NCBI GenBank assembly: GCA_963827635.1
Contig: CAWHBV010000009.1
Span: forward strand, 204,573-268,572
Reading direction: 5' to 3'
DNA: 64,000 nt
Source: an uncultured bacterium
Lineage (GTDB): Bacteria > Acidobacteriota > Aminicenantia > Aminicenantales > Saccharicenantaceae
Position numbers and translations under genes: made by a program. Below, piece after piece: positions 1,195-54,317 of this stretch. Every line of letters begins with the position of its first letter. Position 1 is the stretch's first letter. The notes beneath the pieces were generated by a model. That model was not told the DNA's origin and ran no database searches. It saw nothing but the letters and a program-made list of their open reading frames with translations.

Positions 1195-1911
1195 CAGCGG
1201 CTGACCTCGATCGAAATGCGGCTGCGCTTCTGGACGCGGAAACCGTTCGGAGGGTCCTGCTTGACGACGAGGCCGGCCGGGGCGCCGGGATAGTAGACGT
1301 AGCGGACGTCGGCGACCTTGAAGCCCCGGCTGTCGAGACGGCCGATGACGCTGTCGGCCCGCCGGCCGATGAGGTCGGGCATGACGTAGCGTTCTTCGAG
1401 GCCGCCCTGGCTGAGAAGGAGGCCGACGGGGAAGCTCCGCTCCACGACCGAGCCCGGCTCCGGCTTCTGGGCCAGGATCCGGCCCGCGGGGACGCGGGGC
1501 GTGTGGACCTGGGTCAGCCGCCCCCGGGTCAGGCCGGCCGCCTGGAGCAGGGTCAGGGCTTCGTCGAGGCTCTTCGACGCCAGGTCGGGGACGGTGACCG
1601 TGCCGCTGCCCGAGCTGGTGAAGATCTGGATGACCGTGGCGCTGCGGACCCGCGAGCCCGGAGCCGGTTCCTGCCGGGCGATGAGCCCCTTCTCGATGCG
1701 GTCGCTCGTCTCGGTGCCCCGCTGGGCGAGGGACAGGTCCTTCTTCTGGAGCTCCTCCCGGGCCTGGACGATGCGTCTTGCCGACGAGGTCGGGGAGGGT
1801 GACCACTTCGCTCTTGAGCAGGACCTGGGAGAAGATGATGGCGCTCAGGAAGAAAAGGATGAAGAAGAGCAGCGAGAAGACGCCGGCCTTGAAGAGGAAG
1901 TTGTTCGCCAT
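1194..1911 (-). CDS. Membrane-anchored PASTA-domain protein with three PASTA repeats; frameshifted as read near 1770.
   Basis: The N-terminal TM segment MANNFLFKAGVFSLLFFILFFLSAIIF and the first PASTA start (VVTLPDLVGKT) lie in one frame. The remainder (IVQAREEL...TVTVPDLASKSLDEA...YVMPDLIGRRADSV...ISIEVSR) lies in a second frame. Length is 1 mod 3, consistent with one inserted base. Confidence 0.75.
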
Positions 1912-3151: not shown

Positions 3152-5171
3152 CTACAGCCTCTCGGCGACGATCTGGGCGATGTCCTTGACCGGATGTCGC
3201 CGCGGCCCTTGTCCTTGAGGCCGTCGCGGAGCATCGTCAGGCAGAAGGGACAGGCCGCGGCCACCAGCGGCGCGCCCGACGCGATGATCTCGTCGGTCCG
3301 CAGGTGGTTGATCCGCGTGCCGAGCGACTCCTCCGTCCACATCAGCCCGCCGCCCGCGCCGCAGCAGAAGCTGTCGTCGCCGTGCCGGTCGAGCTCGTTC
3401 GGACCGCCGACCGAGGACCGCAAGCAGGACCGTCCGCGGCTCTTCGGTCAAGCCGTTGTGCCGGCCGAGATAGCAGGGATCGTGGAATGTGTAGCGTCTG
3501 CCGGTTCCGGCCGTCTGCAGACGTCGATCCGGCGTCGCCCCGCTGAGGCTCGTCGATGAGCTCGACGTGGGAGACGACCTCGATCGCCTCGAGACGCGCC
3601 TTGTCCTCGTCCGTCAAACCGGGAATAAGGCCCAGGAGCTTCGGATATTCGTGCTTGAGGGTGTTGTAGCCGTGCGGGCAGATCGTGACGATCTTCCGGA
3701 CGCCGTATTTCGCGAACAGGGCGATATTCTCCTGGGCCAGGCTCTGGTAGAGGTATTCGTTGCCCGAGGCGGCGGGCCGAATCGCCGCAGCACTTCTCCT
3801 CGGCCCGAGCGTCCCGAACGCGACGCCGGCGGCGCGCAGGATCTTGACCATCGCCGCGGCGATCCCCTTGCCCGCGTCGTCGTAGGCGCCCATGCAGCCG
3901 ACCCAGAGAAGATATTCGGCGCCGGGGACGTCCTTGAAGTGCGCGACGTCGAGCGCCTCGCCCCAGTCGGCCCGCTTGGAGAAACCGATGCCCCACGGAT
4001 TGGAGTTCGTCTCCAGGTTGCGGAAGAAGGCGTTGAGCTCGGCGGGGAACTTGCTCTGCATCAGGACCTGGCTCCGCCGGGCCCCGACGATCTTGCGGAT
4101 GTGCTCGATCTCGACCGGGCAGACCTTCTGACAGGCGCCGCAGGTCGTGCAGGTCCAGATCTCGCCCTCGCTGAACGTCCCGGGCACGAGCTCCGGGAGG
4201 TCGTCGCGCTTCTTCCCGGCCAGCGCCTTATCGCCGGCGAGCAGGGCCTTCTCCATGTTGACCAGGATCATTTTCGGGGAGAGGGGCTTGTCCGAGGCGA
4301 AGGCCGGGCAGGCGTCCTGGCAGCGGCCGCATTCCATGCAGGCGAAGGCGTCGAGGTTGTCCTTCCAGGTGAAGTCCGGGAGCTTCTCGACGCCGAAGAC
4401 CTCGGACTTTTCGAGGTCGAGGGCCGGGAGCTCGCCGCTCGGCGCGGACCGCCGGAAGAACACGTTGACCGGTCCGGCGAACATGTGGAGGTACTTGGAG
4501 TGGGGGACGTAGGCGATGAAGCCGTAGACGGCGACGACGTGGGCCCACCAGGCGATCTTGAAGTGGGCGGCCACGGCCGCCGCGCTCATCCCCGACCCGG
4601 TGACCAGGCCGGCGAGCCAGGGGCCGAGGAACGACCAGCGGGCCGTCCCGGGATGGTGGGCGATGGAGAAGGCCTCGAAATAGAGATAGGTCGCCGTGGC
4701 CAGCGTGATCAGCAGGTAGATGAGGGCCGAATCGCCCGGCGTCGTGGCGTAGGCCTTGGGCCGGACGACGAAGCGGCGGAAGGCGAGGAAGACGACGCCG
4801 GCCATGACCGCGATCGCGGCGGCGTCGACCATGAAGGAGAAGACGAGGCCGAGACCGGACTTCCCGAAAAGATAGAATCCGTCGATGAAGCCTTCGAGCG
4901 TGTGACTGACCGTCATCGTGTCGAAGGTCAGGGCCCCGTAGAAGATGCCGACGTGCATCAGGCCGGTGAAGACGCGCTCGCGGCGCAGGGTGCAGCGCTG
5001 GAAGAGGACCTTGCCGACGGCGTGGAGGAACCGCTTGCCCAGGTCGCCGAACCGGTCCTCGGGCGCCCCCGCCAGGACGATCCGGACGCGGCGGACGATG
5101 GGGACGAGGAACGCCGCCGCGGTCGCGACGATCAGCGCGGCGAACACCAGCTTTTCGGGCGTCGTCAGCAT
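3152..5171 (-). CDS. Membrane-bound Fe-S oxidoreductase: an N-terminal multi-TM NarI/DsrM-like domain fused to an HdrD/DsrK-like domain (2x[4Fe-4S] plus CCG). There are at least 4 frame disruptions as read.
   Basis: The N-terminus has about 6 hydrophobic helices. The ferredoxin motifs are [12 protein letters not shown] and [12 protein letters not shown]. The CCG motifs ([13 protein letters not shown] and FCCGAGGG) and the C-terminal end ([12 protein letters not shown]) are found only in alternate frames (ORFs 3448..3996, 3109..3423, 3152..3451). Confidence 0.8.
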
Positions 5172-5287: not shown

Positions 5288-7027
5288 ATGAACGTCCTGG
5301 TCGTCCTGATCGCCGCCGCGGCCGTCTTCGTCCTGGCCGGCCGGTTCTATTCCCGATACATCGCCCGGAGCCTCGGCGAGGATCCCGGCCACGCGACCCC
5401 CGCCGTGACCTGCTGCGACGGCCGCGACTACGTCCCGACGAAGACGTACGTCGTCTTCGCCCACCACTTCTCGGCCATCGCCGGGGCGGGGCCCATCCTC
5501 GGGCCGACCATGGCCATCCTCTACGGCTTCGTCCCGGCCTGGCTGTGGGTCGTGTTCGGCGGCGTCTTCATCGGCGCCGTCCACGACTACACGACGCTCT
5601 TCGTCAGCATGCGCGAGGGCGGCAAGTCCATGGCCGAGGTCGCCCGCAAGACCCTGGGCAACTCCGGCTTCAGGCTGTTCATCGCCTTCACCATCGTCAT
5701 GATCGTCCTCGTGACCTCGTCCTTCCTGAGCGCGACCTCGATCTCGCTGACCTCGCTCTGGCCCCTGGCCAAGATCGGGGTCCGGGAGGGGGAGACCTTC
5801 CTCAAGACGGTCGTCCGGGACGGCGTGGTCATGGGCCGCATCGGCGGCATCGCCTCGACCTCGGTCATCTTCATCACGCTCTGCTCGCCCTTCCTCGGGT
5901 TCCTCCTCTACAAGAAGAACCTGAAGACCGCCGCCGCTTACCTCCTGGCCGCCGCGATCTGCGTCGGCTCCGTCTTCTTGGGCATCGCCTTCCCCGTGAC
6001 CCTGGCCCCGACGACCTGGATGATCGTCATCTCGGTCTACGTCCTCATCGCCGCGGGCGTGCCCGTCTGGCTCATCCTCCAGCCGCGCGACTTCATCAAC
6101 GTCCAGATCCTCTACGCCGGCATCGGCCTGATGATCGTTTCGCTCTTCAGCTGCGGCTTTCAGGGCATGACGGTGACCATGCCCAAATTCAACCTGGCCG
6201 AAGGGACCCTGAATCTCGGCTTCATCTGGCCGATGATGTTCATCACCATCGCCTGCGGCGCGATCTCGGGGTTCCACTGCCTCGTCGCCGGCGGCACGAC
6301 GGGCAAGCAGCTGGCCAAGGAGACCGCCGCCCGGCACGTCGGCTACAACGCCATGCTCCTCGAATCGCTCCTGTCGGTCTGCGTCCTCCTGGCCCTGGGC
6401 GCGGTCATGGCCTTCTCCGACTACAAGGCCATCGTCTGGCCGGCCGACCCGGCCGTGAAATCCAACCCCATCCTCGGCTTCTCGCTGGCCGCCGGCCGGC
6501 TCTTCCATGAAGGCCTGGGCATCCCGGTCGCGCTGGGCACCGTCTTCGGCATCCTGCTCGTGGAAGGCTTCGTCATCACCACGCTCGACGCGGCCGTTCG
6601 GCTCAACCGCTACCTCTTCGAGGAGCTGTGGACGATCCTCTTCAAGAAGGTGCCCCGCCTCCTCAAGCATTACTGGTTCAACTCGGGCGTGGCGGTCGCG
6701 CTGATGTGGGTCCTGGCTTTTTCCAACGCGTTCAACGCCCTCTGGCCGATCTTCGGCACGGCCAACCAGCTGCTCGCGGCGATGGCCCTGCTGACGGTCT
6801 CGGCCTGGCTGCTGCTGCGCAAGCGGCGGAACTGGTTCACGCTCGTCCCGGCGGTGTTCATGGTCGCGACGACCCTCGTCTCGCTGGGCATCCTGCTCTC
6901 GGGCTATATCCGGAAGGGGAACTACATCCTCATCGCGGCCGACCTGCTTCTCTTCGCGCTTTCGGCGGGCGTCGTCGCCCTGTCCGTGAAGACGTTCGTG
7001 AGACGGCGGGGAGCGCTCCCGTCATGA
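5288..7027 (+). CDS. cstA: Carbon starvation protein A (peptide/pyruvate transporter family)
   Basis: A 579-aa intact polytopic membrane protein: MNVLVVLIAAAAVFVLAGRFYSRYIA...FAHHFSAIAGAGPILGP...FGTANQLLA. A GAGGAGAG RBS precedes the ATG. Confidence 0.93.
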   Translation: MNVLVVLIAAAAVFVLAGRFYSRYIARSLGEDPGHATPAVTCCDGRDYVPTKTYVVFAHHFSAIAGAGPILGPTMAILYGFVPAWLWVVFGGVFIGAVHDYTTLFVSMREGGKSMAEVARKTLGNSGFRLFIAFTIVMIVLVTSSFLSATSISLTSLWPLAKIGVREGETFLKTVVRDGVVMGRIGGIASTSVIFITLCSPFLGFLLYKKNLKTAAAYLLAAAICVGSVFLGIAFPVTLAPTTWMIVISVYVLIAAGVPVWLILQPRDFINVQILYAGIGLMIVSLFSCGFQGMTVTMPKFNLAEGTLNLGFIWPMMFITIACGAISGFHCLVAGGTTGKQLAKETAARHVGYNAMLLESLLSVCVLLALGAVMAFSDYKAIVWPADPAVKSNPILGFSLAAGRLFHEGLGIPVALGTVFGILLVEGFVITTLDAAVRLNRYLFEELWTILFKKVPRLLKHYWFNSGVAVALMWVLAFSNAFNALWPIFGTANQLLAAMALLTVSAWLLLRKRRNWFTLVPAVFMVATTLVSLGILLSGYIRKGNYILIAADLLLFALSAGVVALSVKTFVRRRGALPS

Positions 7028-20792: not shown

Positions 20793-21493
20793 ATGAACAC
20801 CATGAGAAAGCTCATTGCGATCGCGGCGTTGGCGGTGGTGGGATTCGCGGCCATGGGCAGCGGCGGCCGGGCCGGACCGGGCGGCCCTGGCCAAGAAACA
20901 GAGCTCGCTTTCGTCCGAATACAGCCTGGCCAAGGATTCGAACTTCTATTTCGTGTTCGACGTGCCTCGGCCGGAAGCTCGAGCTCAGGGTCCGCGGCAT
21001 GGTCCTCAGGACCTGGCCCCTGCAGGCGATGAGGTTCTGGGGACGGCCCGATCTCGCGGGATCGGTCGCGCTCGTCCGAAAAACGACGCTCAAGGCCCCC
21101 GAGCGGATCGTCATCAAGCCGGGAGAAGAAGAGGAGGCCGTTCCGGCGCCGGCGCCCCGGCCGCGAAGCCCGCAGCGTCGGCCGCAGCCCCGGCGACCGC
21201 CGCGGATTTCGATCTCGAAGCCCTCGAGCTGAGGGACATGCCCAAGAGGTTCAGCTTCGACTTCGACAACGGCCTCCACGTCACGATCAAAGCCAAGAAC
21301 GCCGGCGAGCGGGGGTTCGCGGGGACTTTGACGGACGCCTGGCGCTGGTACGTCGATCTGCCCCTGAGGAACCTCTTCGGCTCGCGGGAAGGGAAGGCGA
21401 TTTCCGAGCTGGAGCTGACGTTCGACGAGGAGAAGGACGCCCAAGTCCATCTACTGGCATTTCTTCGACGGGATCAAGGGCATAATTCTCTAG
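20793..21493 (+). CDS. Secreted LDT-like (non-catalytic) hypothetical protein; four frame changes as read.
   Basis: The signal peptide is MNTMRKLIAIAALAVVGFAAMG. The segments ALAKKQSSLSSEYSLAKDSNFYFVFDV / RKLELRVRGMVLRTWPLQAMRFWG...IKPGEEEE / AAKPAASAAAPATAADFDLEALELRDMPKRFSFDFDNGLHVTIKAKN...ELELTFDEEKDAQ / IYWHFFDGIKGIIL lie in alternating frames. Confidence 0.55.
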
Positions 21494-21548
21494 AACCTCT
21501 TGAAAATAAAGGTTTATATAGAACATCGGAAAAACTTGTGATTAATAC

Positions 21549-21577
21549 TTGACAACAGATCACTAAGATTTTATAAT
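21549..21577 (+). promoter_or_regulatory. Consensus sigma70 promoter of the dnaK operon (TTGACA, 17 nt, TATAAT)
   Basis: A perfect -35 (21549-21554) and -10 (21572-21577) with a 17-nt spacer in an AT-rich spacer. The RBS AGGAGG is at 21602-21607. Confidence 0.65.
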
Positions 21578-21590
21578 ATCAACTTACTAA

Positions 21591-23561
<1,971 letters not shown>

Positions 23562-23626
23562 GCCCGGCGGCCTCTGACGGATAGAATGGGGTCCGAACGG
23601 GCCCCGCGGCTGTCCGAGGTGCGGTC

Positions 23627-24756
23627 ATGGCGAAAGATTACTATCAGATCCTGGGTGTCGCCAAGGGGGCGGCCCTCGCCGACATCAAGAAGGCCTACCG
23701 GAAGCTCGCCCGCAAATATCATCCGGACCTCAATCCCGGGGACAAGACCGCCGAAGCGCGGTTCAAAGAGATCCAGGAGGCTTATGCGGTCCTCAGCGAC
23801 ACGAAGAAGCGCGCCCAGTACGACCAGTTCGGCGACCTCGGCGGGACCGCGGGGGGACCGGGACCGGGCGGGCCGGGCGGACCCGGGGGCCCGGGCTTCG
23901 AGGGCTTCGATTTCTCGGACTACGGCTCTTCGACCTTCCGGGATTTCTTCGAGAACATCTTCCGGGGGGGCGGGGTCCAGGGGGCCCAGGCCGCGGCCGG
24001 AGGGCCGGAGCGCGGCGAAGACCTCCAATACTCGATGCAGCTCGGCTTCGAGGACGCCATCCACGGCGTCCAATCCCGCATCCGGATCAACCGGCTCGGG
24101 GCGTGCGACGCCTGCGGCGCGCACGGCCACGTCTCCGGCGGCCGGAGGAGGCCCTGCCCGAGCTGCGGCGGAAGCGGCCGGGGCACCGTCCAGCGCGGCT
24201 TCATGAGGTTCGCGGGCGCCTGTCCGGCCTGCGGCGGAACGGGCCAGACCCCGGGGGAGGCCTGCCGGGCCTGCGGCGGGCAGGGCACGGCCCCGAAGTC
24301 CGACCTCATCAACGTCCGCATCCCGGCCGGGGTCGACAACGGTTCGAAGGTGCGGGTGCCGGGCCGGGGCAACGCCGGGCGCAACGGCGGCCCTCCGGGC
24401 GACCTCTTCATCGTCATCGAAGTCGCCCCGCACGCCTATTTTCCGCACGGGAGGGGGCCGACATCTCGGTCAAGGTGCCGATCACGGTGCCCGAGGCCAC
24501 GCTCGGGGCGAAGGTCGAGGTGCCGACCCTCTGGGGCCGGACCACCATCCGCATCCCGCCGGGGACGAAGTCGGGCCAGAAGTTCCGGATCAAGCAGCAG
24601 GGCGCGCCCGCCGCCGGCGGCAGGGGCCGCGGCGACGAGTTCGCCGAGGTGACGATCGTTCCGCCCCCGCACGACGACGAGCGGGTCCGGGAGCTGATGA
24701 AGGAATTGCAGAAGGTCTCGGGCCCGAACCCGAGGGAGACGACGGGGATGAACTGA
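23627..24756 (+). CDS. dnaJ: DnaJ-family co-chaperone with four CxxCxGxG zinc-finger repeats; frameshifted as read near 24448.
   Basis: J domain (DYYQILGV...YHPDLNPGD), a Gly-rich linker, and [32 protein letters not shown] repeats. The C-terminal part is in ORF 24103..24756. Confidence 0.88.
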
Positions 24757-24757
24757 G

Positions 24758-25171
24758 ATGAAAAAGCCGCGTCCGGAAAAGAAGAAGGGCCCCAGCAAGT
24801 ACTACCACATCTCCAGCGTCTCCGAGATGTACAGCATCCACCCGCAGACCCTCCGGCTCTACGAGCGGGAAGGCCTGCTCACGCCCTCCCGGAGCGAGGG
24901 CAACACCCGGCTCTACTCGGCCGAGGACCTCAAGAGGCTCGAGCTCATCCTCAACCTGATCCGGGAGCTCGGGGTGAACCTGGCCGGCGTCGAGGTCATC
25001 CTCAACATGCGGGCCAAGATCGAGCGCATCGAGGGCGAGGTCAACGAGTTCCTCGAGTACGTCCAGCGCGAGTTCTTCGTGGGCAAAGAGCAGGAGTTCG
25101 AGGCCCGGAAGAGGGCCCTGGTCAGCGTCCGGCCGGGCGGCGTGGTCAAGGTCCGGTCCGGCGACGAGTGA
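24758..25171 (+). CDS. hspR: MerR-family heat-shock regulator (HspR/CbpM-like)
   Basis: YHISSVSEMYSIHPQTLRLYEREGLLTPSRSEGNTRLYS is a MerR helix-turn-helix. Its position directly after dnaK-dnaJ fits this call. Confidence 0.8.
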   Translation: MKKPRPEKKKGPSKYYHISSVSEMYSIHPQTLRLYEREGLLTPSRSEGNTRLYSAEDLKRLELILNLIRELGVNLAGVEVILNMRAKIERIEGEVNEFLEYVQREFFVGKEQEFEARKRALVSVRPGGVVKVRSGDE

Positions 25172-25174
25172 GGC

Positions 25175-26018
25175 ATGGATCCCAGGGATTTCGTCGATTC
25201 GAGGAATCTCAGGCATTACCTGGAGGAGATCTCCAAGTTCCCGGCCCTGACCGACGAGGAGGAGAAAAGGCTCGGCGAGAGGATCCGCGCGGGGGACATG
25301 GACGCCGTCCAGGCCCTGGTCAAGTCCAACCTCAAGTTCGTCGTCTCCTACGTCAAGAAGTACCGGGGCATGGGTCTGGGACTGCTCGACCTCATCGACG
25401 AGGGCAACGTCGGGCTGATCGAGGCGGCCAAGCGCTTCGACCCGACGAGGGGCGTCCGCTTCGTCTCCTACGCCGTCTGGTGGATCCGCCAGGCCATCAT
25501 CCACGCCCTGACGCTCTATTCCCGCGCCTACGCCATCCCCCAGAAGCTGGCCGACCAGATCTCGCTCATGAGACGGAAGACCGCCGAGCTCAAGAGCGCC
25601 CTGGGCCGCGATCCCAACCGGGAGGAGATCGGCCGGGCCATGGGCATCTCCGAGACCGACGTCGAGGACCTCGAGATCCTGGCCGAGAGGAACCTGTCCC
25701 TGAGCGACAGGGTCAACGACGACGACTCTCGAGGTCGAGGACAGGATCAGCGACGCCGCGACGCCCTCGATCGAATATCAGATCATCAAGGCCTCCGTTC
25801 AGGCGCAGATCAGGGGGATCCTCGGGGAATTGGATGAAAAAGAGGCACTTGTGCTAAAATTGAGGTTCGGGCTGGACGACGACAGGCCCCGGACCCTCCA
25901 GGAGATCGGGGCCCAGCTCAAGCTGACCCGGGAGAGGATCCGCCAGATCGAACAGAAGGCCATGAGGAAGCTCAGCCGGTCGACGAAGCTCCAACATCTC
26001 AAGGGATACCTGAATTGA
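25175..26018 (+). CDS. RNA polymerase sigma factor, sigma-70 family (group 2/3-like, about 280 aa); frameshifted as read near 25727.
   Basis: Region 2 (LVKSNLKFVVSYVKKYRGMGLGLLDLIDEGNVGLIEAAKRFD...FVSYAVWWIRQAI) and region 4 (LQEIGAQLKLTRERIRQIEQKAMRKL) lie in two frames. No RpoH box was seen. Confidence 0.85.
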
Positions 26019-26762
26019 GCGACAAAGACGGTCTGCGGCAGGTGCCAGGGGACGGGCTGGCTCCTCGAGGACGCCGGCGGCTCCCAGGTGGCCAAGAGGT
26101 GCGCCTGTTTCGGCGAGCGCTGCAAGCAGGCCCTGTTCGACCAGGCCAACATCCCGCGCCGCTACCAGGTCTGCAGCCTGGACAACTTCGAGGTCCACAA
26201 CGACTCCCACCGGGACGCGCTCAAGATCTCGCGCCAGTTCGTCAAGAACTTCCCGGCCCAGGACGTCGGTCTCGTCTTCATCGGCCCCTGCGGGGTGGGG
26301 AAGACCCACCTGGCCGTGGCCATCCTCCAGGAGCTCATCCGGACCAAGGACGCCTCCTGCATCTTCTACGATTTCCGGGACCTCATCCGGGAGATCCAGA
26401 GCACCTTCACCCCCGAGTCCACCCTTTCGGAGTCGGACATCCTCGCCCCGGTCTTCTCGTCCGAGGTCCTGGTCCTCGACGAGCTCGGGGCCAAGAGGAC
26501 GACGGCCTGGGTCGAGGAAACCGTCTTCTACATCATCAACCACCGCTACAACCACAAGAAGCTGACCATCTTTACGACGAACTATCCGGACATCGACGAG
26601 GAAGAGGACAAAAGGGACTCGTTCTACAAGAAGGGCGGGGACAACCTGATCGACCGCATCGGCGTCCGGCTCCGCTCGCGCATCTACGAGATGTGCAAGG
26701 TCGTCGAGATCGGCGGCGACGACTACCGCAAGATGGCCAAGCAGGCCAGCTACCGGTTTTAA
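26015..26762 (+). CDS. DnaC/DnaI-like AAA+ helicase-loader-type ATPase with an N-terminal Cys-rich zinc ribbon; frameshifted as read near 26029.
   Basis: TTG at 26015 overlaps the sigma factor stop. The sequence has VCGRCQGTGW...KRCACFGERC, then ANIPRRY..SLDNF, Walker A GPCGVGKTHLA and Walker B VLVLDELG. Confidence 0.75.
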
Positions 26763-26831: not shown

Positions 26832-27089
26832 TCCTCGGTAGCTCAATCGGCAGAGCGGGTGGCTGTTCGCGGAAGCGGAGAAAGGTAATCCTGAGCCAAG
26901 CCTCATCCCGGCGGGATGAGGAAGGTGCAGAGACTAGAGCATCGCTCGTACCGCGGCCCGTGGCCGCGGGAAGCGCCCGGCACCCTCAGCCCTAATTCGG
27001 GACGGGTGAAGAGATAGTCCAAGCCCAGAAGAAATTTTGGGGCACTTGTAACCACTAGGTTGCAGGTTCGAGTCCTGCCCGAGGAGCCA
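26832..27089 (+). tRNA. tRNA-Asn(GUU) gene interrupted in the anticodon loop by a 182-nt intron (exons 26832-26866 and 27049-27089, CCA encoded)
   Basis: Cloverleaf folded by hand: acceptor UCCUCGG/CCGAGGA, U8, D arm GCUC-AAUCGGCA-GAGC, anticodon stem GGUGG/CCACU, loop CUGU|UAA, variable AGGUU, T arm GCAGG-UUCGAGU-CCUGC, G73, CCA. It closely resembles E. coli tRNA-Asn. Confidence 0.85.
26867..27048 (+). ncRNA. Group I intron, related to the IC3 tRNA-Leu/tRNA-Ile intron family, with an atypically short 5' domain
   Basis: Core strings GGUAAUCCUGAGCCAAGCC (26884-26902), GGUGCAGAGACUAGA (26924-26938) and AAGAGAUAGUCC (27009-27020). P7 pairs GACUA with UAGUC. The P6 hairpin spans 26901-26921 and a GAAA-capped P9 spans 27024-27041. 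A U precedes the 5' splice site and a terminal G is at 27048. Confidence 0.72.
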
Positions 27090-27173: not shown

Positions 27174-28238
27174 ATGGTCTTTCATCGCCGGCTCGACTTC
27201 GTCATCATGGCTGCTGTGGGACTGATCGTCCTGTCGGGACTTTCCGGCTGCGGGGCGAAGGAAGAGCCCGAGGACACGACGCCCGATATCTACACCTGTG
27301 CGGGCGCCCCGGCGAGCTGCCTGCGGATCGCTTCCGGCTGGACCCTCGAAGGCACGGTCCTGAGCCAGGGCCAGACCGGCAACGGCGGCCCGGACCCGTT
27401 CATCGTGCGGCTCGACGACGGCCGCTACAGGCTCTATTATGCCGTCTCCGACGTCCCGGCGGATCCCGACTGGTGGGGCATGGTCAGCTGGATCTCCGAC
27501 GACGGGCTTCATTTCACCAAAGAAGCGGGCTACCGGTACGAAGATTACACCCTGTTCCAGCACTGTATCGTCCGCAACACCGACGGGACCTGGCGGATGT
27601 ACTGGCTCGACCAGAAACAGGGCCAGGTCAACGGGCGGGGATACAAGGCCATCCGGAGCGCCCTGTCGACCGACGGCGGCGCAACGTTCACGGCCGAGGC
27701 CGGTGAGCGGCTGACCTTTACGGGAACCGGCTACGAGCTGAACGGGATCGGATCGGGAAGGGCCATCCGGCTCGCAAGCGGCGAGATCCGGCTGTACTAT
27801 GCGGGCATCGGCTCTGATCACGGCCGGACCCTGAGCGCGATCTCCCCGAACGGCCTGGATTTCACGCGGGAGGACGGCGTCCGCCTGGATATCCTCTGCC
27901 CGCCGGAGGCCGGCCTCAACGGCGTTTCGCCCGTGATCGACGCGACGGGAACGTTCCGTATCTTCCTGTGGGGGACACGGTGTACGGGCAATTACGTCAA
28001 CTCCAAGGACGGGATCTTCGACGGCACGACCCCGGAGGGCCTGACGATCACGATCTCGAATTCCCCCCTCATCCAGGGCTATTCCAAGGACGGGACGATG
28101 AATACGTGGATCCATCCCGAGGATTTCACCGTCGTCCAGACGCCCCAGGGACTCAGGCTCTATTTCATCCTCTACGGACCGAACGGGCCGGTGACCGAGA
28201 CGGCGCTCTACAGCGTCATCAACACGTCGATCAAGTGA
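27174..28238 (+). CDS. Secreted beta-propeller lipoprotein (glycoside-hydrolase/sialidase-like fold), function unknown
   Basis: Lipobox LSGLSGC. Repeated blade-like motifs (DDGRYRLYY, SDDGLHFTKE, TDGTWRMYW, STDGGATFTAE Asp-box, SGEIRLYY, SPNGLDFTRE). The frame is intact. Confidence 0.75.
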   Translation: MVFHRRLDFVIMAAVGLIVLSGLSGCGAKEEPEDTTPDIYTCAGAPASCLRIASGWTLEGTVLSQGQTGNGGPDPFIVRLDDGRYRLYYAVSDVPADPDWWGMVSWISDDGLHFTKEAGYRYEDYTLFQHCIVRNTDGTWRMYWLDQKQGQVNGRGYKAIRSALSTDGGATFTAEAGERLTFTGTGYELNGIGSGRAIRLASGEIRLYYAGIGSDHGRTLSAISPNGLDFTREDGVRLDILCPPEAGLNGVSPVIDATGTFRIFLWGTRCTGNYVNSKDGIFDGTTPEGLTITISNSPLIQGYSKDGTMNTWIHPEDFTVVQTPQGLRLYFILYGPNGPVTETALYSVINTSIK

Positions 28239-50970: not shown

Positions 50971-51603
50971 CGGACGAAAAAGACAAGCCCGGCGACGAGA
51001 TCGAGTTCATCCCCGAGGCGCCGCCCGAAGGCGGGGAACCGGCTCCGGACCCCCCGGCCCCCGAGAGGAAGGAGCCGGAGGGAGAAGGCCGCCCCGGCCG
51101 AGGGATCGCGCCACCTCAAGGAGAAGCTCAAGAAGAAGGAGGCCGAGGCCAAGGAGCTCCGCAAGGAGCTCGACGAGCTCAAGGAGACGAACCTGCGGCG
51201 CCTGGCCGACATGGAGAACCTGCGCAAGCGCTTCGACCGGGAGAAGACCGAGTTCCAGCAATACGCCCTGAGCGGACTCCTGCTCGAGCTGCTGGGCATC
51301 GGCGACAACTTCGAGCGGGCCCTCCAGAGCGCCGCCGCGGACCCCGAGGGGAAGTCCTTCCGGGAGGGCGTCGAGCTCATCCTCCGCATGTTCCAGGGGC
51401 TGCTGGCCAAGAACGGCGTCCGGCCGATCGAGCTGAAGGACCGGGCCTTCGATCCGAACTTCCACCACGCCATGGTCGTGGAGGAATCCGAAAACGTCGA
51501 GGAACCCGAGGTCGTCGAGGAGCTGCAGAAAGGCTATCTGCACCACGACCGGCTCCTGCGCCCGACCCTGGTCAAGGTCGTCGTTCCGAAGAAAGGACAA
51601 TAG
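50967..51603 (+). CDS. grpE: Nucleotide exchange factor GrpE; frameshifted as read near 51092.
   Basis: LRRLADMENLRKRFDREK...DNFERAL...FDPNFHHAM...GYLHHDRLLRPTLVKV. Confidence 0.9.
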
Positions 51604-51607
51604 CCCC

Positions 51608-53191
51608 ATGGGACGCGTCATCGGCATCGACCTCGGCACCACGTACTCCTGCATCGCCTGCCTCGAAGGAGGCCGGCCGGTGGTCATCCCCAATCTCGAG
51701 GGACTGCCGACGACCCCGTCGGTCGTGTCCTTCACGAAATCCGGCGAGCTCCTGGTCGGGACCCTGGCCATGCGCCAGGCGGTCACCAATCCGGAGAACA
51801 CCTTCTTCGCGGTCAAGCGGCTGATCGGCCAGAAGTTCCGTTCGCCCCAGGTCCAGGAGGCCATGGCCCGGCTGCCGTACCAGCTGAAGGAGGCCGCCAA
51901 CGGCGACGTGGCCCTCGTGCAGGGCCAGCGGACCCTCAGCCCCCCCGAGATCTCGTCGCTCGTCCTGGGCCATCTCAAGGCCTGCGCCGAGGCCTTCTTC
52001 AACGAGCCCGTGACCGAGGCCGTCATCACGGTGCCGGCCCACTTCAACGACGCCCAGCGCCAGGCGACCAAGGACGCGGCCGTGATCGCCGGCCTGACGG
52101 TCGAGCGGGTCATCAACGAGCCGACCGCCGCCGGGCTGGCCTACGGGCTCGAGACGAAGAAGAACGGCCTGGCCGCCGTCTACGACCTCGGCGGCGGGAC
52201 CTTCGACATCACCATCCTCGAGTTCAGCGACGGCGTCTTCAACGTCCTGGCCACGAACGGCGATTCCTACCTCGGCGGCGAGGACTTCGACAACCGCATC
52301 CTCGAATGGCTCGGCGCGAGCTTCCGGGCCGAGAACGGGATCGACATCGCCGAGGACAAGCTCGCGCTCCAGCGGGTGAAAGAGGCCGCGGAGAAGGCCA
52401 AGCGGGAGCTGTCCTTCACGGCGGAGACGGAGATCAACCTGCCCTTCATCGCCTCCGACAAGGCGAGCTCCAAGCATCTCCGCAAGACGCTCAGCCGGTC
52501 GACCTTCGAAGCCATGACCGCGGACCTCGTCGAGCGGACCGTGCCCCGCATCGAGCAGGCGCTGGCCGACGCCCGGCTGAGCCCCGACCGGATCGACCAC
52601 GTCATCCTGGTCGGCGGCCAGACCCGGATGCCCCTCGTCAAGGAGCGGGTGACCAAGTTCTTCGGCCGGGCCCCGGAGGAGAAGGTCGACCCCGACCAGA
52701 TCGTCGCCGTGGGCGCGGCCATCCAGTCGGGCGTCCTCGACGGCCAGGTCCGCGACCTCGTCCTCCTGCTCGACGTCACGCCGTTCGCCCTGGGGATCGA
52801 AACGGAGAACGACGGCTACGAGATGATCATCGAAAGGAACACGACCATCCCGACCCGCAAGGTCAAGGCCTTCACGACCGTGGAGCACAACCAGAGGCGG
52901 GTCCGGATCCACGTCCTCCAGGGCGAGGGCTTTCTCGCCTCGCTGAACAAGTCGCTGGCCGTCTTCGAGCTGGTCGGGATCGAACCGGCCCCGGCCGGCG
53001 TGCCCCAGATCGACGTCACCTTCGAGATCACGGCCGACGGCCTGGCCCAGGTCACGGCCAAGGACAAGGAGACGGGCCTGGAGCAGAGGATCGAGGTCCG
53101 GCCGTCCTCCGGGCTCTCGACCAAGGAAGTGGAGGAGATGCGGAAGAGGCAGACGGGATTGGACGTCGCCAAGCTGGGAGCCCATGGCTAA
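51608..53191 (+). CDS. Hsp70/DnaK paralog lacking the C-terminal helical lid (527 aa)
   Basis: [21 protein letters not shown] and [10 protein letters not shown] motifs. The substrate-binding beta domain is present. The frame ends ...[28 protein letters not shown], 8 nt inside the next gene. The frame is intact. Confidence 0.9.
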
Positions 53192-54317
53192 GAAGGATTA
53201 CTATCAGGTCCTGGGTGTCTCCCGGGACGCCGCGCCCGAACAGATCAAGAAAGCGTACCGTCAGCTCGCCCTGAAACACCATCCCGACCGCAATCCCGGG
53301 AGCAAGGAGGCCGAGGAGAGGTTCAAGGAGGCCGCCGAGGCCTACAGCGTCCTGGCCGACGCCGAGAAGAGGTCCGTCTACGACCGCTTCGGGCACGACG
53401 GGCTGCGGGGCGAGGGCTATCAGGGCTTCTCCGGATTCGATTCGTCCGTCTTCGAGGATTTCGAGGACATCCTGGGGAACCTGTTCGGTTTCAGCTTCGG
53501 CGATCTCTTCGGCGGGCGGGAGCGCGGCCGGGGAAGCCGGCGCAGCCGCGGCCGGGACCTGGCGCTGGAGGTCGAGATCGGCCTCGAGGAGGCGGCGGCC
53601 GGCGTCGAGCGGGAGATCAAGCTCAGCCGGGCCGAGACCTGTCCGGCCTGCAAGGGCTCGAAGCGGAAGCCCGGGACCACGGCGGCCTCGTGCCCGACCT
53701 GCGGCGGGCGGGGCCAGGTCCGCTACCAGCAGGGCTTTTTCACCATGGCCAGGACCTGCCCGCAGTGCCAGGGCGGCGGCGAGATCAACGCCTCGCCCTG
53801 CGAATCGTGCCAGGGCAAAGGCCACGTCAAAGAGAAGAGGGCCCTCAAGGTCCGCATCCCGGCCGGCGTCGACGACGGGTCGCGGCTGCGGCTGGTCGGG
53901 GAAGGGGAGGCCGGCGACCAGGGCATGCCCGCGGGCGACCTCTACGTCGTCACCCGCGTCCGCAAGCACCCCTTTTTCGAGCGCGAGGGCAACGACCTCG
54001 CCTGCGAGATCACGCTGTCCTTCACCCAGGCCGCCCTGGGCGCCCGGATCGAGATCCCGACGCTCGAGGGCAACGAGGTCCTCAAGGTCGCGGCCGGCAC
54101 CCAGCCCGGCGAGATCATCCGCCTCAAGGGCAAGGGCGTCCAGGACGTCGCCGGGCGCCGCAAGGGCGACCTCTTCGTCAAGGTCCTGGTCAAGACGCCC
54201 GAGAACCTCTCCAAGGAACAGAAAGCCCTGCTCGGCAAGCTGGCCGAGCTCCGCGGCGAAGACATCGAATCGGTCGACAAGAGCGTCGTCCACAGGCTGA
54301 AGAACATCTTCCAGTGA
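53184..54317 (+). CDS. dnaJ: Molecular chaperone DnaJ (type I)
   Basis: J domain with HPD, a G/F region, four Cys repeats ([32 protein letters not shown]) and C-terminal domains. The frame is intact. Confidence 0.95.

Follow-up and report, generated by a model that had tools for sequence, protein, structure and literature searches.

A group I intron lacking its first 64 nucleotides in the tRNA-Asn(GUU) gene of an Aminicenantes contig

The interrupted tRNA-Asn gene and its full-length orthologues

The 64-kb stretch of contig analyzed here (the window) carries a tRNA-Asn(GUU) gene split by a 182-nt insert between U35 and U36, with a U before the insert and a G as its last nucleotide (Table 1). 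Joining of the two exons gave a clean 76-nt tRNA-Asn(GUU) with a perfect cloverleaf in ARAGORN. In the unspliced 64-kb window ARAGORN at default settings reported zero tRNAs of any kind and, with introns allowed, misread the gene in the wrong register as a tRNA-Thr(tgt), so that the tRNA-Asn was obtained only by manual splicing. A search of the window against Rfam at gathering thresholds also returned zero matches (the cut-off for Intron_gpI, RF00028, being 50 bits). At relaxed thresholds Intron_gpI was found at 41.1 bits in a 5′-truncated alignment covering model positions 74–253, which spans the 3′ strands of P5 and P4, P6, P7, the 3′ strand of P3, P8, J8/7 and P9. The introns at the orthologous locus of L305, L317 and L449 scored 88.3, 87.9 and 87.8 bits, respectively, over model positions 1–253; these full-length relatives are thus clear members of RF00028 (88 bits), whereas the window gives a sub-threshold, truncated match only.

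Three pattern scans, covering one genome for each bacterial and archaeal species, yielded 313 loci, and 245 matches were placed inside split tRNA genes by ARAGORN with introns allowed. The split genes were most commonly those for tRNA-Leu(UAA) (64) and tRNA-Asn(GUU) (59), the others including those for Met/Ile(CAU), Gln, Thr, Ser, Arg, Phe and Tyr. The intron type found in the window is widespread, occupying the anticodon loop of tRNA-Asn(GUU) in many Aminicenantes and in other bacteria. The window copy stands apart in the distance from the intron start to GAGCCAAG (the P4 3′ strand and P6), which is 26 nt as compared with at least 74 nt in the 245 tRNA-embedded introns. Its overall shortness, remarked on in the initial annotation because the insert falls below 205 nt, is not special in itself: predicted full-length tRNA introns of 188–193 nt exist, and one of them (L081, 188 nt) matches the Rfam model from end to end at 82.5 bits.

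The closest relatives of the insert were identified by BLAST of the window pre-tRNA against the collected loci, giving first L305, from an Aminicenantes metagenome-assembled genome (MAG), at 96% identity and then loci from further Aminicenantes MAGs (L312, L309, L212, L296, L287, L218, L257, L266 and L284). A metagenome scan added ten relatives, including L317 at 98.7% identity and L318, which is interrupted by its contig end. Look-ups of three window ORFs as exact proteins, aimed at the same strain in other assemblies, returned no record. Near relatives were then reached by a homology search with the ORF lying directly downstream of the tRNA gene (27174–28238), including L449, which is located on a 699-kb contig, is about 95% identical to the window on both sides and carries a full 247-nt intron. 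In all 19 close orthologues examined (nine from genomes, nine from metagenomes and L449) the intron is 245–250 nt long and occupies the same site in tRNA-Asn, the nearest being canonical group I introns of 246–247 nt. In L305, L317 and L449 the exons flanking the intron are identical to those of the window, as is the insertion site. Synteny extends well beyond the tRNA gene, with dnaK, dnaJ, merR, sigma-70 and a dnaC/IstB-like gene preceding tRNA-Asn in L305, L317, L449, L309, L257, L212, L296 and others, and with an upstream block that is collinear and 83–96% identical across the relatives (94–96% in the nearest three).

When aligned to these relatives, the window matches along the 5′ exon to 26866, after which 64 nt of the relatives have no counterpart before the match continues. 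The gap opens within 1 nt of the 5′ splice site and closes 4 nt short of loop L5. The 226 nt aligned beyond the junction, reaching into the 3′ exon, were 98.7% identical to L317 and 96% to L305. The three substitutions separating the window from L317 are one U-G to C-G change in P6a and two changes in the GC-hairpin loop. At the 256 columns that do not vary among the 18 closest relatives, the window has no substitution and the gap is its only departure. Judged by these alignments, the element in the window is the orthologous canonical group I intron with the leading 64 nt gone. The junction itself was sought as the exon end followed within at most 30 nt by GGTAATCCTGAGCCAAG, with 0 matches in 241 million metagenome records. 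A related pattern (CTGTT followed by GAGCCAAG) run against 185,579 reference genomes matched only internally to full-length introns, with no truncated copy. Across the sequences compared and searched, the deletion is private to the window sequence.

The conserved fold and the strands missing from the window copy

A fold alignment was built from 61 tRNA-Asn introns and the window (62 sequences), with the structure written out from L317. In L317 the pairings are P1 (GGCUGU of the exon with GCAGCU), P3 (CCGGGUG/CGCCCGG), P4 (UUCAGGG/UCCUGAG) and P7 (GACUA/UAGUC), together with P2, P5/P5a, P6/P6a, two hairpins between P7 and the P3 3′ strand, P8/P8a and P9. This canonical fold paired 91.1% of cells and showed compensatory changes in 53 of 79 pairs, a result matched by none of 500 shuffles, and sliding the 3′ partners by 1–3 columns lowered pairing to 34–48%. 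Covariation was found in four of the seven P3 pairs (one position, for example, being U-A in 28 sequences, C-G in 25 and G-C in 4) and in eight of the ten P5/P5a pairs in the tRNA-Asn intron alignment, and P4, although nearly invariant, was 99.8% paired in the relatives. The guide GCAGCU, at intron positions 7–12 in the relatives, was 96.7% paired. In the full-length form, the 5′ exon pairs with this guide to form P1, followed by the standard P2–P9 fold.

Table 1. Features of the tRNA-Asn locus in the window, with their positions and the evidence for each.
Feature	Position	Strand	Evidence and state in the window
Error-rich flank with about ten window-specific single-base insertions	20960–26030	+	Frameshifted 387-aa gene, dnaK, dnaJ, sigma-70 and dnaC/IstB-like gene; Pfam matches
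tRNA-Asn(GUU) 5′ exon (tRNA positions 1–35, ending in anticodon U35)	26832–26866	+	Fold after joining exons; identical in L305, L317 and L449
5′-truncated group I intron, 182 nt (positions 65–246 of the 246-nt orthologous intron)	26867–27048	+	BLAST and alignment against L305, L317, L312 and L449; Rfam scores
P5a tip, hairpin UCGC-GGAA-GCGG (mini-hairpin of the initial annotation)	26867–26878	+	Aligns to distal P5a of full-length relatives
P5 3′ strand AAGG, partner deleted	26882–26885	+	All four P5 pairs lost
P4 3′ strand UCCUGAG, partner UUCAGGG deleted	26889–26895	+	99.8% paired in relatives; 7/7 pairs lost
P6 (26896–97/26924–25) and P6a hairpin (26901–09/26913–21)	26896–26925	+	Both intact
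P7 5′ strand GACUA, partner 27015–27019	26932–26936	+	Invariant in 62/62 sequences; within R and S conserved elements of Rfam alignment
P7.1-like hairpin GAGC-AUC-GCUC	26937–26947	+	Compensatory changes in 3/4 pairs; GNRA loops in some relatives
P7.2-like GC hairpin, 8 bp and CGU loop	26951–26969	+	In Aminicenantes orthologues and most of the wider family; 8/8 pairs covary
P3 3′ strand CGCCCGG, partner CCGGGUG deleted	26974–26980	+	97.9% paired in relatives, 4/7 covarying; 7/7 pairs lost
P8/P8a hairpin CACCC...GGGUG, with CUCAG (26985–89) partly in internal loop	26981–27008	+	Rfam alignment; family alignment
J8/7 AAGAGA and P7 3′ strand UAGUC	27009–27019	+	Rfam alignment; family alignment
P9 hairpin (27024–30/27035–41, GAAA loop) and 3′ tail with omega-G at 27048	27024–27048	+	6/7 P9 pairs covary
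tRNA-Asn 3′ exon with encoded CCA	27049–27089	+	Fold after joining exons

Absent from the window are intron positions 1–64, which carry the P1 guide and all of P2 together with the 5′ strands of P3, P4 and P5 and two nucleotides at the start of the P5a 5′ strand. This agrees with the earlier reading of the insert as having no 5′ strands for P3, P4 and P5, to which the P1 guide and P2 can now be added, and with the observation that only 17 nt (UCGCGGAAGCGGAGAAA, 26867–26883) precede GGUAAUCCUGAG, leaving the 3′ strands of P4 and P3 without an upstream partner. In total 31 pairs are lost (all of P1–P5 and one of P5a), and the remaining 48 are intact. Compared with the features expected of a group I intron, P1 is absent (six of six pairs, the guide being deleted), its only substitute in the window being a fortuitous 4-bp CUGU/GCGG pairing. 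The P3–P7 pseudoknot is broken, with P7 intact and the P3 3′ strand partnerless (seven of seven P3 pairs gone), as is the P4–P5–P6 domain, in which P6 and P6a are intact and P4 (seven of seven pairs) and P5 (four of four) have no 5′ strands. The conserved R and S elements and J8/7 are retained, GGUGCAGAGACUAGA and AAGAGAUAGUCC aligning to the Intron_gpI model, as is the omega-G at 27048, followed by UAACC of the 3′ exon. A complete length with the 5′ domain would be about 245–250 nt, of which the first 64 nt are gone in the 182-nt window copy. The copy falls short in P1, P3, P4 and the gathering score only because one block is missing.

The 8-bp GC hairpin (26951–58/26962–69) and the CACCC...GGGUG hairpin containing CUCAG (26981–27008) are both present as first described. 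The former had been taken as an extra element; it is found in all close full-length relatives, where it is conserved and covaries (for example CCGCGGCC/GGCCGCGG as compared with CUCCGGAGG/CCUCCGGGG, or CCCCGAGCC/GGCUCGGGG). Its proposed extension by 26943–46/26972–75 is poorly supported, with 68.5% of cells paired as compared with 67.3% in shuffles; the family instead supports a small GAGC/GCUC hairpin at 26937–40/26944–47 and assigns CGCCCGG (26974–80) to the 3′ side of P3. Both the GC hairpin and the small hairpin before it are normal P7.1/P7.2-like peripheral helices and are unrelated to the truncation. The insert had been read as having a non-canonical core, a view that comes close to being overturned, as covariation backs the standard fold and a normal 5′ domain is present in every relative.

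One way to retain function without the missing block would be a rearranged minimal ribozyme acting in cis, in which P4 would be formed by 26891–95 with CUCAG at 26985–89 and a 4-bp pseudo-P1 by exon CUGU with GCGG at 26875–78. The complementary segments are present, and GCGG and CUGU could pair with a U-G wobble at the junction. However, the alternative pairings put forward in the initial annotation (26891–95/26985–89 together with 26884–86/26990–93) showed 0 compensatory changes, and 74.9% of cells were paired as compared with 74.7% after shuffling, which is the pairing expected by chance. Moreover, CUCAG and GCGG are inherited unchanged from the full-length introns, where they lie in the P8 internal loop and the P5a 3′ strand, respectively, the partnerless P3 3′ strand makes the P3–P7 pseudoknot impossible, and the truncation is accompanied by no sequence change that could be read as adaptive relative to the full-length orthologues. 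The suggestion of a rearranged or pseudoknotted minimal ribozyme is thus unsupported, and we regard its probability as close to negligible.

In group I introns the guide sequence, P3 and P4 are indispensable in cis. Because P1, the P3–P7 pseudoknot and P4 cannot form without positions 1–64, the RNA as written should not self-splice, a conclusion drawn from what is established about how group I introns are built and work. Since the window has no substitution at the invariant columns and only three differences from L317, the deletion is either extremely recent or not biological; an evolutionarily re-engineered ribozyme or an old relic should not look so unchanged.

Contig quality, intron polymorphism and the origin of the deletion

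The tRNA-Asn gene lies at the downstream edge of an error-rich patch of the contig. Within the 6 kb upstream of the gene, single-base (+1) insertions found only in the window occur at about 20964, 21444, 21618, 21744, 23340, 24438, 24447, 25727 and 26024. When the proteins of L309 were aligned to the window, the matching frame changed along each gene (dnaK, 3, 2, 3; dnaJ, 2, 1; sigma-70, 2, 3; the dnaC-like gene, 2, 3; the 387-aa gene, 3, 1, 2), with amino-acid identity remaining at about 55%–95% despite the frameshifts and reaching 95% in the main dnaK segment. No comparable private frameshifts were seen in the matching stretch of L305, L449 or L309. Because essential, strongly conserved genes are broken only by +1 insertions, these point to consensus errors and not to pseudogenes.

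The remaining suggestions of the initial annotation, a degenerate relic or a deletion artefact of the assembly, both fit an orthologous intron minus 64 nt in a frameshifted contig. We consider the insert to be a non-functional truncation and an assembly or consensus artefact to be its most likely cause; two observations favor this origin, namely the local concentration of errors in the contig and the intron polymorphism of the locus. Speculatively, where intron-plus and intron-minus strains coexist, the assembler might receive reads with a gap starting exactly at the exon–intron boundary, and a windowed consensus step might then keep only part of the gap, leaving a deletion that begins at the 5′ splice site. 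Against such an origin, a 64-nt deletion is an unusual type of error for any sequencing platform, the other errors here being single-base insertions; there are no window-specific indels at 28.3–29.6 kb, so that poor quality is local and not general; and the deletion ends show neither microhomology nor a bridging hairpin to explain a slip of biological or technical nature.

Close Aminicenantes strains differ at this locus in whether the tRNA-Asn gene carries a full-length intron or none. Loci L444–L447, about 94% identical to the window downstream, have a precisely intronless tRNA-Asn gene of a slightly different tRNA allele, and a more distant Aminicenantes MAG (L397) is intronless at the orthologous locus. 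Altogether, intronless tRNA-Asn genes were found in Aminicenantes at L329, L376, L384, L397 and L444–447. Such intronless genes were also considered as backup copies; where the flanks are informative, most (L384, L397 and L444–L447) lie at or next to the orthologous locus and are thus alleles and not second copies.

The main alternative to an artefact is a real and very recent deletion, which would leave this tRNA-Asn as an unspliceable pseudogene, with Asn decoded through another tRNA-Asn(GUU) gene. The sequence does contain the deletion, intron gain and loss are ongoing among close relatives, a natural intron fragment is present in another Aminicenantes genome (L376), and the absence of decay fits a very recent event. 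On the other hand, tRNA-Asn(GUU) is the sole Asn isoacceptor, so that its loss would be fatal unless a second copy exists, and the 64-kb window contains no second tRNA gene of any kind. The junction occurs in no other assembly searched, and the frameshifts in essential, conserved genes nearby are very unlikely to be biological. A real deletion is a credible explanation that we hold to be less probable than an artefact.

Three specific routes to the deletion were examined and rejected. Slippage between CUGUU repeats (in the anticodon loop and in the P5 of other lineages) does not apply, since P5 is here GCCUUCCCU and the deletion ends share one T only. A DNA hairpin joining the deletion ends was not recovered either, the DNA fold of the full-length region keeping them apart. 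A third route, in which RNA spliced at a cryptic 3′ site was reverse transcribed, was discarded because the guanosine-binding site requires a G and the deleted segment ends in U or C.

Relation to known introns and significance

The closest known systems are the tRNA-Asn(GUU) introns of other Aminicenantes (L305, JBGSUG010000247; L317, Ga0316616_100028861; L449, ERZ25039597 contig_11001), located at the same locus and U35/U36 site. They share with the window the P5a tip, P6, P6a, P7, P7.1, P7.2, P8, P9 and the omega-G, and differ from it in having the first 64 nt, with the P1 guide and P2, the 5′ strands of P3–P5 and the 5′ start of P5a.

The intron of the Azoarcus sp. BH72 tRNA-Ile(CAU) gene (IC3, 205 nt), a model small self-splicing intron, also lies in a tRNA anticodon loop. 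Its core is highly similar to that of the window (GGYAA-N7-GAGCCAAG and GGUGYAGAGACUAGA) and its structure similarly compact, the Azoarcus sequence being taken in part from the comparison made in the initial annotation. The Azoarcus intron has a complete 5′ domain and neither of the hairpins that here separate P7 from the P3 3′ strand. In comparison with it, the window copy is shorter through truncation and not through compaction. The core sequence in the window resembles those of the classical bacterial tRNA introns, in a family where a pair of covarying hairpins follows P7 and precedes the P3 3′ strand, a position for hairpins that is typical of subgroup IA. The tRNA-Asn intron family combines P7.1/P7.2-like hairpins with an otherwise IC3-like core. 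Anticodon-loop group I introns are documented for many bacterial tRNAs (Williams 2020, bioRxiv 10.1101/2020.01.27.920355): the four classical classes all belong to IC3 in GISSD, and the number of tRNA/position classes has since grown to 21.

The position of the deletion also recalls the Azoarcus W/X/Y/Z system, in which non-covalent complexes of fragments are catalytic in vitro (Draper, Hayden and Lehman 2008, PMC2241849). The 64 nt absent here are an almost exact counterpart of Azoarcus W (63 nt, ending in L5), and the remainder in the window is that of X-Y-Z (PMC2241849). The intron could accordingly be imagined as split, a 64-nt module supplied from another locus assembling non-covalently with the 182-nt part and forming P1 in trans so that the tRNA is spliced. 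By analogy with Azoarcus, and with the position of the break as what suggests it, a W-like RNA could restore P1 (on the 5′ exon), P3, P4 and P5 and allow splicing at the present junction. The deletion starts within 1 nt of the 5′ splice site and ends 4 nt before L5, close to the break that defines the W fragment active non-covalently in vitro (PMC2241849), and all retained helices are intact. The Azoarcus system is, however, an engineered in vitro one, whose fragment complexes require high Mg2+ and 48 °C (PMC2241849), and no W-like RNA gene was found in the 64-kb window: two probes of 21–23 nt for the deleted segment gave no match at up to 3 mismatches, and a 58-position nhmmer profile gave a best E-value of 2.8 as compared with about 1e-19 for positive controls. 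No relative is so arranged and the error-rich context offers a simpler explanation, making a split intron very improbable.

For sequence analysis in general, a truncated Rfam match flanked by intact exons should be compared with its orthologous loci before any new architecture is put forward, and the contig around 21–27 kb is unfit for gene-level inference unless the reads are checked. A genuine non-canonical core would represent a self-splicing ribozyme of a new minimal or bipartite kind, relevant to ribozyme structure and RNA-world models, and a true trans arrangement would be a natural bipartite group I intron, broken almost at L5 as in the engineered Azoarcus W + XYZ. The evidence points in the opposite direction, to a known and widespread intron that has lost 64 nt in this sequence alone, within a part of the contig that is rich in errors.

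Presence, absence and remnants of the tRNA-Asn intron

The tRNA-Asn intron was polymorphic among strains approximately 94–95% identical to the window at the locus orthologous to window 26832–27089, with L449, a near relative, carrying a full intron of 247 nt whereas L444–L447 were precisely intronless. The tRNA allele of the intronless loci was also slightly different, with base changes that compensate for each other in both the acceptor stem and the anticodon stem. In the locus from Candidatus Saccharicenans subterraneus (L376), an intact tRNA-Asn without intron was found approximately 2.9 kb from an intron remnant, in which ~60 nt from the intron's 3′ end, comprising the P7 3′ strand, P9 and omega-G, are fused to a complete 3′ exon. 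This arrangement resembles either an att-site-type duplication or the relic of an intron-bearing allele. Separately, a deltaproteobacterial MAG (L358, 3276–3997) contained seven tandem copies of a tRNA-Asn 5′ half pattern with a spacing of 114 nt.

Hairpins of the intron family and short introns predicted to be complete

The tRNA-Asn intron family showed two covarying P7.1/P7.2-like hairpins that follow the P7 5′ strand and precede the P3 3′ strand, a position typical of subgroup IA, although the rest of the core is like that of IC3. In other sub-lineages, a different conserved insert occupied this site (UGAGG...CCAAUAAGC). Among the other loci collected, four predicted complete tRNA group I introns (L081, L094, L130 and L017) were all shorter than the 205-nt Azoarcus intron. 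The intron at L081 (locus coordinates 6233–6431, minus strand) lies in a tRNA-Arg(UCG) of an Omnitrophota MAG; it is 188 nt long and matched Rfam with 82.5 bits over the full model; the other three measured 190 nt (one) and 193 nt (two), and at Rfam gathering thresholds L081 was the only one of the four to give a match.

Sequence flanking the tRNA-Asn gene

Compared with relatives, window 20960–26030 contained approximately 10 single-base insertions private to the window, which frameshifted the five genes tabulated below. Since these genes retained high protein identity to relatives, the consensus seems to be locally erroneous in this stretch. A second region akin to the dnaK-containing upstream block, at about 51600–53400, sits ~30 kb downstream of the frameshifted block; it has ~69% nucleotide identity to the relatives' sequence and is probably a dnaK paralogue.

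Positions of the features discussed, in window coordinates unless another locus is named
Feature	Position	Remark
Intact tRNA-Asn and intron remnant	L376, about 1344–1420 (minus strand); 4329–4404	
387-aa gene	within 20960–26030	frameshifted by window-only insertion(s)
dnaK	21591–23558	frameshifted by window-only insertion(s)
dnaJ	23603–24753	frameshifted by window-only insertion(s)
sigma-70 gene	25172–25838	frameshifted by window-only insertion(s)
dnaC/IstB-like gene	25844–26759	frameshifted by window-only insertion(s)
P7.1/P7.2-like hairpins	26937–26969	columns 319–379 of alignment A1 (61 tRNA-Asn introns and the window)
354-aa ORF	27174–28238	directly 3′ of tRNA; weak BNR-repeat match

The 354-aa ORF was found in L305, L449 and L444–448, sharing 74–96% aa identity in the four loci compared at the protein level (L305 and L444–L446), and was missing from L317, another near relative with a full-length intron. 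The segment that it occupies is a variable one adjoining the tRNA gene.
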